Positions 22,687 to 30,828 of a DNA stretch of 64,000 nt are shown here, one piece after another. The stretch comes from a candidate division FCPU426 bacterium (GTDB lineage Bacteria; Oederibacteriota; Muellerivitia; Muellerivitales; Muellerivitaceae), in contig CAWCKJ010000003.1 of assembly GCA_963796105.1 (NCBI GenBank), forward strand, positions 640,001 through 704,000. Reading direction: 5' to 3'. The stretch's first letter is position 1, and each line of letters begins with the position of its first letter. Both the position numbers and the translations under genes were made by a program. The notes under the pieces were generated by a model. The model saw only the letters and a program-made list of their open reading frames with translations. It had not been told where the DNA came from and made no database searches.

Positions 22687-22789
22687 TCTTAGGGGATGTA
22701 AAGACGCGATACTCGTGAGTTAGTTTAACCGAACCGGAATCCCATAACAACGAAAGGAGGGTTAAACATGGAGCCCCATGAGCATCTGG

Positions 22790-23584
22790 CTACGCAAAAG
22801 CTTCGTCAAATAAGCATCCGCAGCCTGTCCTCCCATCACTTCGGCGAACATCCACCGTAGCCCTATGGCATTCAACCGCGGCCATAGCCCGTGGCTTGCC
22901 CTCAATAGCTTTAACGAAATAGAGGGATACTCTGGCAAAGGCGGATAGGGGGCAGGAGGATGAAAATTCAGGTGTGAGCCAGCCATCGGTTGCTGAGGCA
23001 ACACTGAATAAATCGAACGGGCTCGTGCCATTTGAGCCACCGTCATACCCTCCACCCGCACAGGTAACTTCATAATTGGAATTATTTGAATAGACTTGGT
23101 CAGCCAAATCGGTGATGAAATTAGTAAAGTTAGTCTTATCGCTTGAGTACATTCCTTCAAAATCAATATTAACGCCCTGATATCCATATGTTTTAAAATC
23201 TTTTAAGATTTGAGTAATCACGTTTTGATAGAAGGCAGGATTACTTAATACTGAATGCATAACAGACGGGTCAAAGCTATAAACGCACATAATTGGTCTA
23301 ACACAATTACTTTCTGCCGCTGAAATAAAGTCAGTTTGTGGAGAGGCATTCAAGGTACCGTTCGAATTAAGTGGAAAATCGAAGTCGACGGCGTGTGTTA
23401 ACTTATCCCACTGTATTAAGGAATAATCGTATCCAGATTGATAAAATCCGTATTCAACTCCATTGACACTAAGTTGAGCAATAGAGTGGGCAGGAAGGAA
23501 AAATAGAAAAGAAAAAGAAACCGTCCACATATATTTTCTGGGCCAAAAGTGGCTTATGAAAAAATTTCTTTGAGTCTCGAGCAT
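22790..23584 (-). pseudogene. Truncated GH18 (chitinase-like) glycoside hydrolase
   Basis: Signal peptide, IQWDKLTH and GYQGVNIDFE (GH18 catalytic strand); hydrolase-like sequence stops near ATDGW (~22980) and the tail is read through a dispersed repeat. Confidence 0.7.
22839..22946. repeat. Nested-hairpin dispersed repeat, copy 2
   Basis: Aligns by eye to 12013-12118 over ~107 bp; inner stem CCCTC/GAGGG here versus CCTTC/GAAGG in copy 1. Confidence 0.8.
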
Positions 23585-23631
23585 TTTTTATCAATACTCT
23601 CTTTTGTATGAAATACAAAAACGATGAATTA

Positions 23632-24543
23632 TTATGGTCTTCTGACGTTCCCATTTTTTATTGGGATAACAGTTTGAATTGACATGTTGGTTTTGTGTCC
23701 ATATGCTCCAACACAAGCAACCCCGAAATAATAAATTTTTCCATTTTGCAGAAATCTAATGGTGATTTTTGTTTTTTTAAAAGGTTTTTTAATTTGCCTT
23801 TCGTATTTTATTCCGTCTTTCGAAACAAAAAGTACGTAGCTTTGAGCCTTTGGCATTGGATCCCAAGTTAGATAGGCCTCACTATCACCAGCTTCTATTT
23901 TGAGATTTGTAGGTGGGTCAGGTTGGGGTTCGGGGTTTTTGATCCCCCCGGGTGTTCCTTGAATAATATATTTTTGTTTCTTGCGCCATTTTGCATATTC
24001 TTCACTTTTTGGATCAGGTGGAGCAGCATTAGTTTGAATCCACTTAGGTGTAAGCTCAATAGCCCATTTGGGTGTAACCGATAGTTTTTTGGGAACCACT
24101 GATTGAACTGTCATTCCACTCTTTTGCCCGTCAAAGCCTAGAGAAGCTACAGCATAGTAGTATTTTTTTCCATTCTCCAATTTAACAACATTTGCTTCAT
24201 TAAAAACGTCTGCATTCGAATTTGGAAACTGAAGATTAAAATCCTTTCCATCTTCCGAAACATAAATCAAGTAAGCTCTTGCATTTGGCATTTTATCCCA
24301 AGACAAATGGGCACATTCATCCCCTGGTTCAATCGCGAAATTAGTGGGAGGAGCCGGAACAGTTCCAGGGGTCGGCAAAGCAATTAGTGTTTCTATTGAA
24401 GTGGGATTAGAATTTTGTGTTTGTCCTTGCGTTGGATACACGAATCCGGCTGAAAGAGAAAAACATAAAATTGAGAAAAAACCACGGTAAACCATTTTGC
24501 CTAACCAATTAGTTGAAACTTGGTTTCTATTTTCTTTTTTCAT
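23632..24543 (-). CDS. Secreted protein with two fibronectin type III domains
   Basis: Two repeats: PPTN(F/L)xIExGD...L(S/T)WDxMPxAxxY..(Y/F)VSxDG...L(E/Q)NGKxYY(Y/F)xV; AT-rich. Confidence 0.8.
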   Translation of the reverse strand: MKKENRNQVSTNWLGKMVYRGFFSILCFSLSAGFVYPTQGQTQNSNPTSIETLIALPTPGTVPAPPTNFAIEPGDECAHLSWDKMPNARAYLIYVSEDGKDFNLQFPNSNADVFNEANVVKLENGKKYYYAVASLGFDGQKSGMTVQSVVPKKLSVTPKWAIELTPKWIQTNAAPPDPKSEEYAKWRKKQKYIIQGTPGGIKNPEPQPDPPTNLKIEAGDSEAYLTWDPMPKAQSYVLFVSKDGIKYERQIKKPFKKTKITIRFLQNGKIYYFGVACVGAYGHKTNMSIQTVIPIKNGNVRRP

Positions 24544-24918
24544 GCAAGCCTCCGAAGGTTTCTTGATCTGTCAAGGTTCTCAAATTGCGAAATGGAAGTA
24601 AGGTAAAATTATTATTGTGAAGGAACAAAGCTTTACCAGTTGGTTGGACTGAATAGTTAGATTCAAACGATTTTAGAAATTTCACTTAATATGCCTCCCT
24701 GCTATTGATTGGTGAGTGGAGGGTGTGGATTGAATAACTTTTTGAAAACATCTATTGCTGAAAAGATTGCCTAAAATCGATAGAGGCACTCTAAATCTGG
24801 CGGGTCATCTATTCAACAAAAATGGAGGTAAAATATATTTTGATCTTTAAATGCACCACTGATTGTGTGAAGTGTTTTGACACCCCAAAATTGGAAAACG
24901 AAGATGTAAACAAACAAA

Positions 24919-25958
24919 GGGGTCAGGCCATCATTCATCACTTTACAAATGGTGTGAGTTGTTTACAATGTCCTAATGCCAAGACCTAAACGGATCCATT
25001 ATGAAGGGGCGGTTTACCATGTAACCTCGCGCGGTAATGAACGGCGAAAGATTGTTATGAATGACGCCGACCGCTGGATGTTTATTCGGTTATTGGGGGA
25101 AATGGTTGAAGAGAATGGTGTGTTATGTCACGCTTGGGTGTTGATGGATAATCATTACCATTTGATGCTGGAAACCCCAAGCGCGAATTTATCAGCAGCC
25201 ATGAAACATTTAAACGCCCAATACACACAAAAATTCAATAAAAAGCATTATCGGAACGGGCATTTGTTCCAGGGGCGGTATAAGGCCATTATTGTGGAGA
25301 AAGACAGTTATTTAAAGGAATTAAGCCGGTATGTGGTATTGAATCCGGTAAGGGCCCGGATGGTAAAACACCCCAAAGACTGGAAGTGGAGTAGTTACCG
25401 GGCGACAGCGGGATTTGATAGGGCGGAAAAATGGCTGAAAGTGGACTGGTTATTAGGGCAGTTTGGTAAGGAAAGAAAAAAGGCGCAAAAATCATACAGG
25501 ACTTTTGTGGAAGAGGGGATGGGGAAGAAAGAAAAGCCTTGGGATGATTTGTATTCGCGTATATACCTGGGTGGTAAGGAGTTTTTGGACAAGGTTCACG
25601 AAGTAGGGCAACGTCACAAACATTTGGATGTACCGAAATACCAGAAACACGTGGTAAAGCAAGATCCGAAAGAAGTGTTGGAGAAAGTAGGAAGAATGTA
25701 TGGTGAAAAACCGGAGGAAATATTGAGGGCAGGCAAAAGGGAGTCGGAAGCCCGGGATATGGCGATATATTTATTAAAGAGAAAATCAGGAATGAGTTCC
25801 AAGGCGATAGGAATGAAGATGGGGGTGGGGGAAAGCGCGGTGGGAAACCGATTGATGAAGATCAAAAAAAGGTTGGCGGAAGACGAAAAGTTTGCACAAA
25901 AGCTGATAAAGTGATGAATGATCACTGCCACACGCTGCGGAGCGTGTGGCCTGACCCC
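24919..25958 (+). mobile_element. Y1/HUH transposase element bounded by 27-bp inverted repeats
   Basis: Left GGGGTCAGGCCATCATTCATCACTTTA (24919-24945); right TAAAGTGATGAATGAT[25 nt]GGCCTGACCCC (25907-25958) is its exact reverse complement once 25923-25947 is removed; no TSD seen. Confidence 0.8.
24976..25914 (+). CDS. REP-associated tyrosine transposase-like protein (Y1_Tnp) with C-terminal DnaA-C-like HTH
   Basis: MPRPKR, YHVTSRG, LMDNHYHL (HUH), HLFQGRYK, RYVVLNPVRA (catalytic Tyr), WKWSSY; C-terminal EARDMAIYLLKRKSGMSSKAIG. Confidence 0.9.
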   Translation: MPRPKRIHYEGAVYHVTSRGNERRKIVMNDADRWMFIRLLGEMVEENGVLCHAWVLMDNHYHLMLETPSANLSAAMKHLNAQYTQKFNKKHYRNGHLFQGRYKAIIVEKDSYLKELSRYVVLNPVRARMVKHPKDWKWSSYRATAGFDRAEKWLKVDWLLGQFGKERKKAQKSYRTFVEEGMGKKEKPWDDLYSRIYLGGKEFLDKVHEVGQRHKHLDVPKYQKHVVKQDPKEVLEKVGRMYGEKPEEILRAGKRESEARDMAIYLLKRKSGMSSKAIGMKMGVGESAVGNRLMKIKKRLAEDEKFAQKLIK

Positions 25959-25964
25959 TATGTT

Positions 25965-26478
25965 TTGGAACTCTGGAACTCCTGGAACCGGCCTGGAACC
26001 ACGACACCCGGGAAACTTGGAACTCTGGAACTCCAGGAACTGGCCTGGAACCACGACACCCGGGAAACTTGGAACTCTGGAACTCCTGGAACTGGCTTGG
26101 AACCACGACACCCGGGAAACTTGGAACTCTGGAACTCCTGGAACTGGCTTGGAACCGCGGGAACCCGGGATTCTTGGAACCTTGGAACTGGCTTGGAACC
26201 ACGTAAATCCGGGGTTCTTAGAACCTTGGAACTTTGGAACCGCCTTGGAACCACGGAAATCCGGGGTTCCTGGAACCTTGGAACTTTGGAACCGCCTTGG
26301 AACCACGGAAACTCGGGATTCTTGGAACCTTGTAACTTTGGAACTGGCTTGGAACCATGGAAATCCGTGGTTCTTGGAACCTTGGAACTTTGGAACCGCC
26401 TTGGAACCACGGAAACTCGGGATTCTTGGAACCTTGTAACTTTGGAACTGGCTTGGAACCACGGGAACTCGAGAACTG
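25965..26478. repeat. Tandem array of ~10 x 52 bp units built from TGGAAC hexamers plus a palindrome
   Basis: Unit starts 25965, 26017, 26069, 26121, 26174, 26218, 26270, 26322, 26374, 26426; no unique spacers. Confidence 0.92.
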
Positions 26479-26828
26479 GACGGTAAGCAGGTAAGTCGGT
26501 AAGCCAGGCGGTAAACCTGGCATTGGACGACGGAAACCCGACCGGCCATGCCGGTTGCTGAAACCCCCATGCCGGTAGTTGAAACCCTCATGCCGGTAGC
26601 CCATCCCCGCCATGCCGGTAGGCGACGGACCATGCCAGCAGGGATGCCAGCGCATGCCAACAGGCATTCCGGCCTCTGCCAGCAGGGACCCCGGTCTATG
26701 CCAGCAGGAATACTGGCCATGCCAGCAAGGATTCCGGTGGAACGCGCCCTACAAGTTGGACAGTTGAAGCAAAAAATAGAGAATAGGGAAACGGCTCAAG
26801 GGGTAACCCCCCAAAGGAGCATTTCCAA

Positions 26829-27176
26829 ATGGGTAAAATAAGACGGAAGTTCAGTATTGATTTCAAAGAACAAGTCGTCCACGAGGTAGAAACTGGCCTA
26901 TCGCTCAATGAAGCTGCTCGTCAATACCAGCTCAATCCAAGCGTTATAACCCGTTGGCGCGATAAATATCGCCAAGGAACCTTGGTTGAAAAACCTTCCC
27001 TTCACGAAAAAATATTGGAAAAAGAGAATGAGAAACTCAAAGCCAAGATTGGGGAATTGATCATGGCGATAGACCTTTTAAAAAAATTCCAAAAATACGC
27101 GGAAAACCAGAGAAAGCTCGATACCTCCGTGATCACCTCAAGGAATTTGGCTCAATTTCAAGAGGATGCCAAATGA
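26829..27176 (+). CDS. IS3 transposase OrfA (HTH + leucine zipper)
   Basis: RRKFSIDFKEQVV...AARQYQLNPSVITRW; A7 slippery run at 27080-27086. Confidence 0.9.
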   Translation: MGKIRRKFSIDFKEQVVHEVETGLSLNEAARQYQLNPSVITRWRDKYRQGTLVEKPSLHEKILEKENEKLKAKIGELIMAIDLLKKFQKYAENQRKLDTSVITSRNLAQFQEDAK

Positions 27177-28009
27177 TGGGGCTTCCTCGAAGTACCTATT
27201 ATTCTGCACTTAAAAGTGAACCGGAGATTCAGGAACAAAGAGATTTGGACTTAAAGAACCGAATCGAGCAGGTGAGATTGACCTTCCCCTACTACGGCTA
27301 TCGGAGGCTCTACCACCACTTTTTACGGGAGGGATTAAGGATTAACGCCAAACGGATTCGGCGGGTGGTAAGGAAATACGGTCTTTACCCTATTATTTGG
27401 GGGAAAAGGTTCAAGATCCAAACCACCCAATCCAATCACGACCTGCCGGTGTTCCCCAACCTCTTGGAAAGGGTGGCAGAAACTGCTGTCAATCAAGTGT
27501 GGGTGGCGGATATTACCTATATCCGAATCCTCACTTGCTTTGTTTATCTGGCGGCCATTCTGGATCGTTTTTCCAGAAAGGTGATCGGGTGGGCGGTTTC
27601 CAAGAGACTGGATCGGGAGTTGTCGCTTTCGGCTTTACGCATGGCTTTAGAGGAAAGGAATCCTCTTCCGGGATGCATCCACCATTCAGACAGAGGGGTG
27701 CAATATGCCTGCTGGGATTACGTGGCCCTGCTTGAGTCCAAAGGATTAAGGATCAGCATGTCCAGGACAGGCAACCCTTACGACAATGCAAATGCGGAAT
27801 CCTTTTTCAAAACCTTGAAATATGAGGAGGTGCATCTATTCAATTACGAAACTTATCAGGAAGTGCTTCAAAGACTTCCATACTTCATCGAGGAGGTGTA
27901 TAACAAAAAACGGTTGCATTCTTCTATCGGCTACATGCCGCCTGAGGAGTTCGAGGCTTTAAAGTCACTCAAACCAATCGCCGGAAAACCTATTCTCAAC
28001 TTGGAGTAA
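27173..28009 (+). CDS. IS3 transposase OrfB (DDE integrase core)
   Basis: YGYRR, WVADITYI, HHSDRGVQY, DNANAESFFKTLK, YNKKRLHSSIGY; -1 frame is open from the A7 run, allowing an OrfAB fusion. Confidence 0.93.
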   Translation: MMGLPRSTYYSALKSEPEIQEQRDLDLKNRIEQVRLTFPYYGYRRLYHHFLREGLRINAKRIRRVVRKYGLYPIIWGKRFKIQTTQSNHDLPVFPNLLERVAETAVNQVWVADITYIRILTCFVYLAAILDRFSRKVIGWAVSKRLDRELSLSALRMALEERNPLPGCIHHSDRGVQYACWDYVALLESKGLRISMSRTGNPYDNANAESFFKTLKYEEVHLFNYETYQEVLQRLPYFIEEVYNKKRLHSSIGYMPPEEFEALKSLKPIAGKPILNLE

Positions 28010-28308
28010 AAACTGTCCAAGGTTTGGGGCGCACACCACGGCTTATGCCAGCAGTACCCAGGTTTATGCCAGCAGAAACACCGCCCATGCCAGCAGGGAA
28101 TCCGGCGTCTGCCAGCAGGAAAACCGAACCTGCCAGCAGGTACCCCGGTTTAATTACAGCTGTTTAGTGGATTTATTACATTGCGGCAAAACCAGGATAA
28201 GATTTAGTCCGTTTCTTGGGATTTCTTGGGATCTTGAAGGGAAAATTGCTTTAGTTTTGCTCTACTTGCCCTCGAACCGATTACAATAACTGTCCCTTTT
28301 AAATAAAT

Positions 28309-30828
28309 ATGAATGAAAAGGATCGTGAAATGGGAAACATTCGATACGCCGTTTTGGCCGCCCTGGTCTTTATCCCCGGCATACTCGCGTCAGCGGATAC
28401 CCTTCCTGACCCGGCGGAAAACCGGGTTGAAGCCATCCTGAAAAAAATGACCCTGGAAGAGAAGATCGATTACATCGGGGGATTCAATTCCTTTTATGTC
28501 CGGGCGGTTCCCCGCCTGAAACTGCCCGCCTTGAAGATGTCCGACGGGCCGATCGGGGTTCGCAATTACGGGCCATCCACGGCCTATGCCGCCGGGATCG
28601 CCCTGGCGGCGTCCTGGGACACGGAACTGGCCGGGCGCGTGGGCGGGATGATCGGCCATGAGGCCCGGGCGCGGGGGGTTCATTTCATGCTGGGCCCCGG
28701 CGTGAACATCTACCGCGCCCCCATGTGCGGGCGCAATTTCGAGTACTTCGGCGAGGACCCCTTTCTCGCCTCCCGCATGGTTGTCTCTTACGTGAGGGGA
28801 ATGCAGGAACAGGGCGTGAGCGCCACGGTCAAGCACTTCATGGGAAACAACTCCGAATATGACCGCCATAACACGAGTTCCGATATGGACGAGCGCACGA
28901 TGCGGGAGATCTACCTTCCCACCTTCGAGGCCGCCGTGAAGGAGGCAAAAGTGGGGGCGATCATGGACTCCTACAACCTAGTGAACGGCGTCCACTCCAC
29001 CCAGAACGATTTCCTCAACAACCAGTTGGCCAAGAAGGAATGGGGGTTCGACGGCGTCATCATGTCCGATTGGGACGCGACCTACGACGGGGTGGCCGCG
29101 GCCAACGCAGGCCTGGACTTGGAAATGCCGTCGGGCAAGTTCATGAACCGGGACACGCTGATTCCGGCGGTCAAGGAAGGTAAGGTTTCGGAGGAGACAA
29201 TTAACGACAAAGTGAGGCGGATCCTGCGCACGGCGGTTCGTTTCGGCTGGCTTGACCGCGACCAAACCGACCACGCCTTCCCCCTCTTCAATGAGAAGGG
29301 GCGCAAGCTGGCGCTCGAGACGGCCCAATCCAGCATGGTCCTCCTGAAAAACCAGGGCAATCTACTGCCATTGGACAAAGGGAAAGTCAAAACGCTGGCG
29401 GTGATCGGTCCCGACGCCTACCCTGCAGTGCCGGTGGGCGGGGGAAGCGCGAAGGTCCAGCCTTTCCAGTCGGTGAGCTACTTGGAGGGTTTAAGCCAGT
29501 ACCTTTCCGGAACCGCGGTGGTTTATTACAACCGAGGGCTCATGCCCATGGGCGAGATTTACGATTTGACGGAATTCGCGGCAGACGCCAAGGACGAAGA
29601 ATCGGGTCTCAAGGGAGAATACTTCAACAATGCCGACTTGAGCGGGGATGCAGCCCTCACCCGCAACGACCCCCATGTCAATTTCACTTGGGACCGCCCG
29701 AACAACTGGCCCACCGGCAGTACCGCGCATGATTTCTCGGCCCGCTGGACCGGCTATTACTTCCCTTCCACGGACGGCCCCTACCGCTTCGCTGTTTCCA
29801 CCTATGGCCTGGACGAGTACCGCCTCTATATCAACGGCAAGCTTTTCGAGGACCGCAAAGACCAAAAACAGCCCATTTCGCTGAAGGAGATGGAACTCAA
29901 GGCCGGCAAGGCCTACGCCCTGCGCCTGGAGTATGTCCATCGGGACCACCATGCCAGGCTTAGTTTTGGCATCCGGCGGGCCGACTTGTTCTTCGACCCG
30001 GAGGCGAAGGAGCTGGTGTCGCGCGCGGACGCCGCGGTGGTCCTGGCGGGTTTTGACCCCAACATCGAGGGCGAGGGTTTCGACCGGACGTTCCAACTCC
30101 CCGAGGGCCAGGACGCGCTCATCAACGCGGTCTTGGACGCCAACAAGAACACGGCGGTCGTGATCACATCAGGCGGCGCGGTGGACATGAAAAAGTGGGT
30201 GGACCGGGCGCCGGCGGTGCTGGAAGCCTGGTACGCGGGACAAGAAGGAGGCACGGCTTTGGCCCATATTCTTTTTGGGGACGTCAACCCCTCAGGCAAG
30301 CTTCCCGCGACCTTCGAGCGCAGTTGGGAGGACAGCGCGGTCCACGACAGTTATTACGCTGATTCCAAAAAGCATGTCCGCTATTCCGAAAGCATATTCC
30401 TTGGCTACCGGCATTTCGACAAGGCCGGCGTGAAGCCGCTTTTCCCCTTCGGTTTCGGTCTGTCCTACACCACATTCAAATACGGGGGCCTGTCCATCAC
30501 GCCCGATGCGGCCCAGGGAGACGACCCTGTCACGGTCTCGTTCAACGTGACCAACACGGGCGGGCGCGAGGGGGCGGAGGTTACGGAGCTTTATGTCGGC
30601 GACAGCCACGCGAAAGTGCCGCGCCCCGCGAAGGAACTCAAAGCGTTCGCCAAGGTGGACTTACAACCGGGCGAGACGAAGGGGGTGACTGTGAGCCTTG
30701 ACCGCCGGTCATTTTCCTATTTCGACGAGAAATCTAAGCAATGGAAGGCCGACCCGGGAGCCTTCAATATATTGGTAGGTTCCTCTTCGCGAAATATCGA
30801 GCTGACGGGCAAGCTGGAATTGCGCTGA
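28309..30828 (+). CDS. Secreted GH3 beta-glucosidase with PA14 insertion and Fn3-like C-terminus
   Basis: MSDGPIG, GRNFEYFGEDP, VKHF, IMSDW (nucleophile), LKGEYFNN...FSARWTG (PA14), FPFGFGLSYT, KELKAF. Confidence 0.93.
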   Translation: MNEKDREMGNIRYAVLAALVFIPGILASADTLPDPAENRVEAILKKMTLEEKIDYIGGFNSFYVRAVPRLKLPALKMSDGPIGVRNYGPSTAYAAGIALAASWDTELAGRVGGMIGHEARARGVHFMLGPGVNIYRAPMCGRNFEYFGEDPFLASRMVVSYVRGMQEQGVSATVKHFMGNNSEYDRHNTSSDMDERTMREIYLPTFEAAVKEAKVGAIMDSYNLVNGVHSTQNDFLNNQLAKKEWGFDGVIMSDWDATYDGVAAANAGLDLEMPSGKFMNRDTLIPAVKEGKVSEETINDKVRRILRTAVRFGWLDRDQTDHAFPLFNEKGRKLALETAQSSMVLLKNQGNLLPLDKGKVKTLAVIGPDAYPAVPVGGGSAKVQPFQSVSYLEGLSQYLSGTAVVYYNRGLMPMGEIYDLTEFAADAKDEESGLKGEYFNNADLSGDAALTRNDPHVNFTWDRPNNWPTGSTAHDFSARWTGYYFPSTDGPYRFAVSTYGLDEYRLYINGKLFEDRKDQKQPISLKEMELKAGKAYALRLEYVHRDHHARLSFGIRRADLFFDPEAKELVSRADAAVVLAGFDPNIEGEGFDRTFQLPEGQDALINAVLDANKNTAVVITSGGAVDMKKWVDRAPAVLEAWYAGQEGGTALAHILFGDVNPSGKLPATFERSWEDSAVHDSYYADSKKHVRYSESIFLGYRHFDKAGVKPLFPFGFGLSYTTFKYGGLSITPDAAQGDDPVTVSFNVTNTGGREGAEVTELYVGDSHAKVPRPAKELKAFAKVDLQPGETKGVTVSLDRRSFSYFDEKSKQWKADPGAFNILVGSSSRNIELTGKLELR

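Follow-up and report, generated by a model that had tools for sequence, protein, structure and literature searches.

In a window of 64,000 nucleotides from a candidate division FCPU426 bacterium (the whole stretch analysed, on contig CAWCKJ010000003.1), a recently mobile TIRtron with an HUH/Y1 transposase appears to have been joined by its right tip into an array of tandem non-coding repeats that is likely to be the older of the two. The enzyme is likely to visit and reshuffle such arrays, rather than to be their maker or their dedicated partner; the probability of this reading is put at roughly 0.6. The element is of a known kind, and what is new is the evidence of its mobility and a candidate cut site. 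Seven intact copies, together with a tip that has been mapped and a C^T as candidate nick site, make it directly testable whether and how an enzyme like the REP (repetitive extragenic palindrome)-associated tyrosine transposases (RAYT) moves its own gene with symmetric ends. The phased arrays, in turn, appear to draw in some transposon families and not others. The source genome of the window, of 4.98 Mb, is called G000 and a genome of the same genus G001; C-numbers (C2, C3, C4, C6, C7 and C12) are contigs of G000, and L-numbers are fetched loci.

As judged from its sequence, the element is a TIRtron carrying a transposase of the TIRYT type (TnpA-Y1 subclass 2.1). An earlier, sequence-only reading of the window had set its HUH enzyme between terminal inverted repeats beside the subterminal hairpins of IS200/IS605 elements; an HUH enzyme with such repeats is a described class and not a new architecture. 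In the accessible parts of Di Nocera et al. (2013; PMC3733652) it has a RAYT-like gene, a DnaA-type helix-turn-helix (HTH) and inverted repeats with the motif GGGGWSAS, and in those of Quentin et al. (2018; PMC6006769) TIRYT is equated with TnpA-Y1 subclass 2.1. The names TIRtron and TIRYT were found in the accessible parts of these two papers only, and TIRYTs are the largest and least studied RAYT-like subclass. The window element shares with these accounts the HUH/Y1 and HTH domains between GGGGWSAS repeats, the dispersed gene-less ends and some self-complementary tracts. A mapped tip, a C^T-biased stutter, one-ended derivatives and an association with phased arrays were not found in the accessible text, nor was recent movement of a TIRYT, although the supplements may list multi-copy cases.

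Seven intact copies of the element are present in G000. They are ~98% identical, with 14 to 24 nucleotide differences per kb, and have unrelated flanks, which shows recent movement. The ratio of nonsynonymous to synonymous polymorphism (pN/pS) among them is 0.20. Their polymorphisms are mosaic, 108 of 190 informative site pairs being incompatible, so the copies exchange sequence. Five further intact genes in G000 have 52 to 69% identity. A total of 53 repeat ends were found in this genome, 28 of them gene-less, and the gene-less ends often carry interior DNA of variable length. Several similar copies are also present in the relatives G016 and G026, and inverted-repeat pairs were identified at 48 of 79 metagenome homologs. 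On plasmids there is one 43%-identical match, too little to show plasmid spread. For comparison, the most insertion sequence (IS)-like group of true RAYTs has 6.3% duplicates according to the accessible part of PMC5581495.

The seven copies have no visible target duplication and no common flank sequence. In the window copy and in three sister copies, the flank that could be traced does not resume across the element, so that a simple two-ended insertion was not seen. One long sequence recurs in G001 on the outer side of both ends of a TIRtron (L096:4201 and 5215) and outside an end of another family (L092:7896). It is possible that IS110 targets TIRtron tips, since this flank sequence overlaps an IS110 transposase gene in L092.

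The outer limits of the window element, 24912 and 25965 with one mismatch, were placed correctly in the sequence-only reading; the mismatch is in the outer 7 nt, and mapping of the tip on paralog flanks agrees. The 27-bp inverted repeats reported with them hold for the left end (24919-24945), whereas the right repeat is split by a 25-nt hairpin insertion (25922-25946). When this insertion is removed the right repeat matches the left at 27 of 27 positions. Both ends of the element have GGGGTCAG, which fits GGGGWSAS. For 14 of 50 ends there is a close outer-flank paralog whose match stops 5 to 10 nt outside the GGGG. Among these 14 the tip is 7 nt long in seven, two of them allowing 2-nt microhomology, and 9 nt long in five.

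The left end has no stable hairpin in the folding test. The hairpin of the right repeat occurs in G000 mostly at repeat ends, where it is one of several different hairpins at this position. At least seven different hairpins of 23 to 24 nt are found at the same position inside repeat ends, some with compensatory changes, and are followed by AG[G/T]GA. Ends bearing them are located, for example, in G000 at C3:496829, C4:1265496, C4:1206104, C12:12608, C12:177584 and C12:186969 and in G001 in L226 and L228. It may be that repeat ends take up REP-like hairpins or swap them.

The transposase was confirmed as an intact RAYT-like HUH protein with a C-terminal DnaA-C-like HTH, matching Pfam Y1_Tnp with E 2.5e-13 and NCBIfam NF047646 (REP-associated tyrosine transposase) with 86 bits against a cut-off of 80. 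No IS200 model matched it in the profile search. Its match to the HTH family Bac_DnaA_C (PF08299) is weak (E 3.9e-5, under the gathering cut-off); a 55%-identical paralog is above the cut-off. H60-x-H62 and Y119 are invariant in 42 of 42 aligned homologs, and Y119 is aligned with Y115 of PDB 4ER8, the TnpA-REP structure, which is also the nearest solved fold to an alignment-based structure model with a predicted local distance difference test score (pLDDT) of 86. This model was used as the single-sequence model was poor (pLDDT 42), and in it the C-terminal domain is all-helical. The RAYT-like Y1 genes found in G000 are TIRtrons only, together with two shorter IS200-like genes. The promoter predicted upstream of the gene is a weak one, since 7 sites were found where 4.4 are expected in shuffles.

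Tandem duplications of the tip were identified at 32 of 165 distinct gene-linked homolog ends, compared with 0.37% at random positions. Twelve of the 32 start exactly at the T of C^TGACCC (CTGACCCC), the commonest start. Longer end duplications are of 120 and 512 bp in G000 and of 89 bp in G016. In the accessible part of Ton-Hoang et al. (PMC3333891), TnpA-REP cleaves at C^T, even at distances of over 400 nt from its site, and assembles tandem units in vitro; for bacterial interspersed mosaic elements (BIMEs) a rolling (nick-extend-renick) model is proposed, by which tandem units are added. By analogy with TnpA-REP chemistry, the HUH domain of the window protein would act on single-stranded DNA, nicking it at both C^T and the tip. 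The HTH would bind the family-specific inner repeat, and each end may be joined to the target on its own. If ends are joined singly, stutters, partial duplications and flanks that are not contiguous would result, as would the one-ended transport of whatever an end encloses, arrays among it.

The element resembles a REPtron in its nearest fold (4ER8) and in its aligned catalytic residues; C^T cleavage and the rolling model would also suit the tip duplications. Unlike a REPtron, its gene moves as a unit, with inverted ends and an additional HTH, and the flanking arrays do not consist of GTAG-tagged hairpins. A REPtron with REP/BIME sequences was rejected, as the arrays do not fold and there are seven intact copies with unrelated flanks rather than a single vertical gene. 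With the IS200/IS605 elements (IS608, ISDra2) it shares the Y1 HUH fold, the multiple copies and the lack of target duplication; however, its ends are symmetric and not a pair of differing subterminal hairpins, there is no fixed target tetranucleotide, the flanks are not contiguous and there is no TnpB. The symmetric ends, the left end without a stable hairpin and the absence of a common flank place it outside IS200/IS605, whose members have asymmetric subterminal hairpins and insert 3' of a fixed tetra- or pentanucleotide. In the IS91/ISCR elements one defined end is the point from which an HUH enzyme carries along a variable length of DNA, whereas here the enzyme is of the Y1 RAYT type and the two ends are equivalent, with no distinct ori and ter.

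The array at the right end begins directly at the tip (25965-25966). The sequence-only reading of about ten 52-bp units there was borne out, with 9.8 units from 25965 at 85% matches, one unit being 44 nt; the 52-mer is composed of GGAAC motifs at spacings of 8, 9, 11 and 24. The GGTAAG module that follows is present, but as three GGTAAG and one GGTAAA, spaced 8, 8 and 12, and not as four identical repeats. There are indeed 14 units of 21-22 bp, but these are of two types, four with a ATGCCGGTAG-type and ten with a TGCCAGCAG-type core, and an IS3 element splits them 9 + 5. The 22-bp spacing returns when the IS3 (~1.3 kb) is removed in silico. There are 10 copies of this IS3 in the genome, 9 of them 99.9-100% identical. 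Helical phasing holds for the 21-22-bp spacing, which is strict genome-wide in several motif families, and not for the "five turns" of the 52-bp unit, which are not conserved because the GGAAC family has 17-, 19- and 26-bp periods in G001.

In G000, 101 arrays were identified that are neither coding repeats nor CRISPRs nor IS ends, and they form 51 clusters; three clusters outside these motif families were dropped, and 48 array loci were counted. The arrays are non-coding, modular minisatellites in intergenic sites that vary among strains, and many keep a strict two-turn spacing. Each module consists of a ~10-bp core and a variable tail, and the modules are chained in changing order and orientation. 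For ATGCCGGTAG, 97 of 113 spacings are 21 or 22 bp and the remainder 42 or 43, and several other cores are alike; GGAAC (8, 9, 11, 24) and GGTAAG modules are without strict 21-22-bp spacing. In the GTDB collection the ATGCCGGTAG core at 21-22 bp is present at 24 loci, with ~2 expected by rough arithmetic. Several of these loci, in Bacteroides, Cytophagaceae, Stieleria and Dorea, have at least three units, and all 24 are without an enzyme homolog within 3 kb. An exact pattern derived from the 52-mer has no match in the GTDB collection, and BLAST of the array block among 61 genomes (no more than 8 candidates scored in each) gave matches in G000 and G001 only. The arrays fold no better than shuffles, and their likeness to repeat ends is no greater than in shuffled controls. 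The repeat-end word GGGTCA is depleted in them, with 3 seen and 16 expected. No Rfam match was found at these arrays, and one weak chance match in a G001 locus.

Several identities were considered for the arrays. A CRISPR or RNA-guide array was rejected because tails recur between units and loci and there is no Rfam family, and a coding function because periods of 22, 43 and 52 break the frame. Minisatellites borne by miniature inverted-repeat transposable elements are not indicated, as not one of the 48 array loci is enclosed, within 1.5 kb, by a pair of ends that face inward. An origin of the cores from REP palindromes was dropped, the longer unit of a viral contig having no stand-alone family in G000. 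This viral contig (L240:2001-2222) ends in a perfect 21-bp repeat with a CTACCGGCA core, possibly an assembly artefact. Plasmid iterons have a conserved core at 21-22-bp spacing, or two helical turns; the arrays differ in being at ~50 chromosomal loci, with many unrelated cores and no Rep gene among the neighbours scanned. The array family was not found in print, and the nearest described case is BrickBuilt of Porphyromonas gingivalis, which in the accessible part of PMC4596501 has a 23-nt unit at 19 loci with a conserved leader and an inverted-repeat end. Both are dispersed intergenic arrays, here with a repeat end, a 400-bp leader and array units. Unlike that account of BrickBuilt, many motif families are chained here, the repeat end is on one side only and most arrays are without one.

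Other sequences accompany the arrays. The conserved non-coding leader, of ~400 bp, is located between a gene-less repeat end and arrays (G000 C3:745011-745448 and copies), has no Rfam match and is in part 88% identical in G001 (L089:863-1039). An AT-rich heptamer-type repeat is within 200 bp of ~8 arrays (e.g. G000 C3:743793-743910). Tandem units of 75-77 bp are found in G000 at C2:112809-121189, C2:158387-158993 and C3:732524-732760, and one such array abuts the left end of a 69%-identical TIRtron on C2. A CRISPR array at C2:363775-367168 (L011) has a repeat-end unit joined into its final spacer, adjoining a 52-mer array. Between two array clusters, L009:6035-13667 holds a gene region of the RHS-repeat type that has a phage-lysozyme domain and is interrupted by IS21a.

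The adjacency of TIRtrons and arrays is not due to chance, since 3 of 8 TIRYT copies abut arrays (null ~0.7%), a cognate repeat end is within 1.5 kb of 16 of the 48 array loci (5 of 97 control IS sites, 2.8% at random) and gene-less ends face arrays. Nine of the 28 gene-less ends in G000 face an array, 400-1200 nt away, and none faces away; among the fetched G001 loci 3 of 9 face arrays. As these ends point toward arrays, the enzyme likely transports array DNA, and elements of the TIRtron family most likely carry array DNA around. The arrays were likely there first, because the window tip cuts a 52-mer mid-unit and because, at a site shared by the two genomes, a 12-unit array without any TIRYT in G001 corresponds to three remnant units in G000, where a TIRYT follows ~430 bp on.

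The arrays hold other transposons as well. The IS load of G000 is very heavy, with ~56 IS1595, 22 IS1380, 29 IS21, 10 IS3 and 10 IS4-type copies. Within 600 bp of an array are 9 of 13 IS21a, 5 of 5 IS21b, 5 of 10 IS3 and 4 of 8 TIRYT copies (null 2%), as against 1 of 56 IS1595, 0 of 20 IS1380a, 0 of 10 IS4 and 0 of 11 copies of two other IS21 families; only two of the four IS21 families in G000 favour arrays. A stricter proximity measure gives 4 of 13, 4 of 5, 5 of 10 and 3 of 8, respectively (null 0.7%). No common target sequence was found at the IS21 or IS3 insertions in arrays. It is likely that arrays are favoured targets of several unrelated transposases (two IS21 families, IS3 and TIRYT), perhaps via bendable or protein-bound array DNA; the accessible part of PMC11208146 mentions the suggestion that DNA prone to kinking is a hotspot for IS21 and IS3. 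Since the arrays are at ~50 loci and also hold unrelated transposons, the enzyme is likely to visit and reshuffle them rather than to own them.

The sequence-only reading had suggested that the enzyme and the arrays may be one system. What stands of this is the adjacency beyond chance, with direct abutment at the window copy, at two sister copies and at a second-family copy on C7, and the strict two-turn spacing in many arrays also suits phased binding platforms or substrates that form one functional unit with the HUH-HTH protein. However, most of what that reading named as counter-evidence was observed. None of 29 best-hit homolog loci in related genomes and none of 79 metagenome homolog loci, 50 of which had a flank of 1 kb or more on one side, carries such arrays; the arrays are spread across the genome, and at 32 of the 48 array loci a cognate repeat end is absent within 1.5 kb. 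The abutting arrays fall in three different motif families. Their lack of likeness to repeat ends argues against binding platforms for the HTH, and their failure to fold against REP-like substrates. It also counts against such a unit that the inner repeat varies with transposase family (rank correlation 0.61 for the HTH and 0.55 for the core; as the sequences are related, this is no measure of co-evolution). A dedicated functional unit is therefore highly improbable.

It has also to be asked whether TIRYT builds the arrays: bound at an end, it would nick C^T sites some hundreds of bases further in and amplify short units by rolling, and the arrays would later spread and become parted from the end. 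Tip stutters can run to several copies, whose head is constant and whose tail varies, as in the GGAAC and GGTAAG arrays. On one strand, several array cores start with CT, the arrays that gene-less ends face are 400-1200 nt distant, no RAYT-like Y1 genes other than TIRtrons were found in G000, and TnpA-REP cuts >400 nt away and assembles tandem units in vitro (PMC3333891, accessible part). Set against these are the 0 of 108 homolog loci with such arrays, the 32 of 48 array loci without a cognate end, the scarcity of GGGTCA in arrays (3 against 16) and the arrays of the same core in other phyla with no homolog nearby; stutter also leaves the strict 21-22-bp spacing unexplained. Array-building of this kind is distinctly unlikely. 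Also unlikely is a version in which TIRtrons are a self-mobile HUH transposon class whose ends act singly, nick C^T, stutter and export interior DNA; in this lineage they would thereby build and spread the phased arrays, which would then serve other transposons as landing pads, in a Helitron-like manner.

A different account dispenses with targeting, with arrays, TIRtrons and some IS accumulating in neutral, strain-variable intergenic DNA where insertions survive. The absence in G001 of the hemL-GH3 block that holds the window element would fit this, as would the heptamer-type repeats and accessory genes that also gather at array loci and the IS21 and IS3 insertions without a common target sequence. 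On this account it would not be expected that five other IS groups avoid arrays (1 of 97 copies within 600 bp) or that gene-less ends are oriented toward them, and it is considered doubtful.

Several points weigh against the preferred reading of a mobile TIRtron that entered, and likely reshuffles, older arrays. Array enrichment does not tell targeting from improved survival in neutral DNA. Half of the TIRYT copies are not near arrays, and the IS21a enrichment is only 4 of 13 by the stricter measure. The array-facing ends represent few independent events, as they have only two interior-sequence families (7 + 2). Twenty of the 32 stutters start elsewhere than at C^T, mostly 3-8 nt further out, and the strand polarity of joining is not readable from the products. 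No contig from four DNA runs, which covered mainly multi-copy parts, spanned the window junctions, and the flanks of three other copies are not syntenic on both sides in five relatives; with no empty-site allele from any copy, the order of events at the window junction is inferred. No cleavage, binding or transposition is reported for any TIRYT in the accessible parts of PMC3733652 and PMC6006769.

Table 1. Features of the TIRtron, the adjoining arrays and the surrounding block, by position in the window.
Feature	Positions	Strand	Remarks
Left end	24912..24945	+	7-nt degenerate tip 24912-24918 and 27-nt repeat 24919-24945; GGGGTCAGG head conserved, inner part family-specific
Predicted sigma-70-type promoter	24942..24969	+	Consensus match, 10/12; -35 overlaps inner end of left repeat
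TIRYT, HUH/Y1 nuclease (H60, H62, Y119) with C-terminal DnaA-C-like HTH	24976..25914	+	312 aa, intact open reading frame
Right end	25907..25965	-	Inner repeat 25907-25921, 25-nt insertion 25922-25946, outer repeat 25947-25958, tip 25959-25965
Hairpin inside right repeat	25927..25950	.	10-bp stem, z = -5.7
GGAAC-motif array	25966..26468	+	Period 52, 9.8 units; first unit cut mid-unit at element tip
GGTAAG module	26482..26515	+	3 + 1 variant; family much expanded in G001
Four 21-22-bp units	26546..26632	+	ATGCCGGTAG-type core
Five 21-22-bp units, left part	26630..26737	+	TGCCAGCAG-type core
IS3-family element, intact	26738..28038	+	orfA 26829-27176, orfB 27173-28009; 3-bp CGG target duplication
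Five further units beyond IS3	28043..28150	+	TGCCAGCAG-type; continuation of array
Variable block, hemL to GH3 gene	22766..28315	.	GH18-like gene, 303-aa gene, TIRtron, arrays, IS3

Between hemL and the GH3 gene, G001 has unrelated DNA in place of the variable block. The 303-aa gene within the block has at most a weak fibronectin-like Pfam match. The gene at 23632-24543 of the window is probably secreted, and in both genomes relatives of this gene, or of the region upstream of it, are again found next to TIRtrons or arrays (G000 C6:78644-82657 and C3:194692; G001 L086 and L097), in arrangements that differ.

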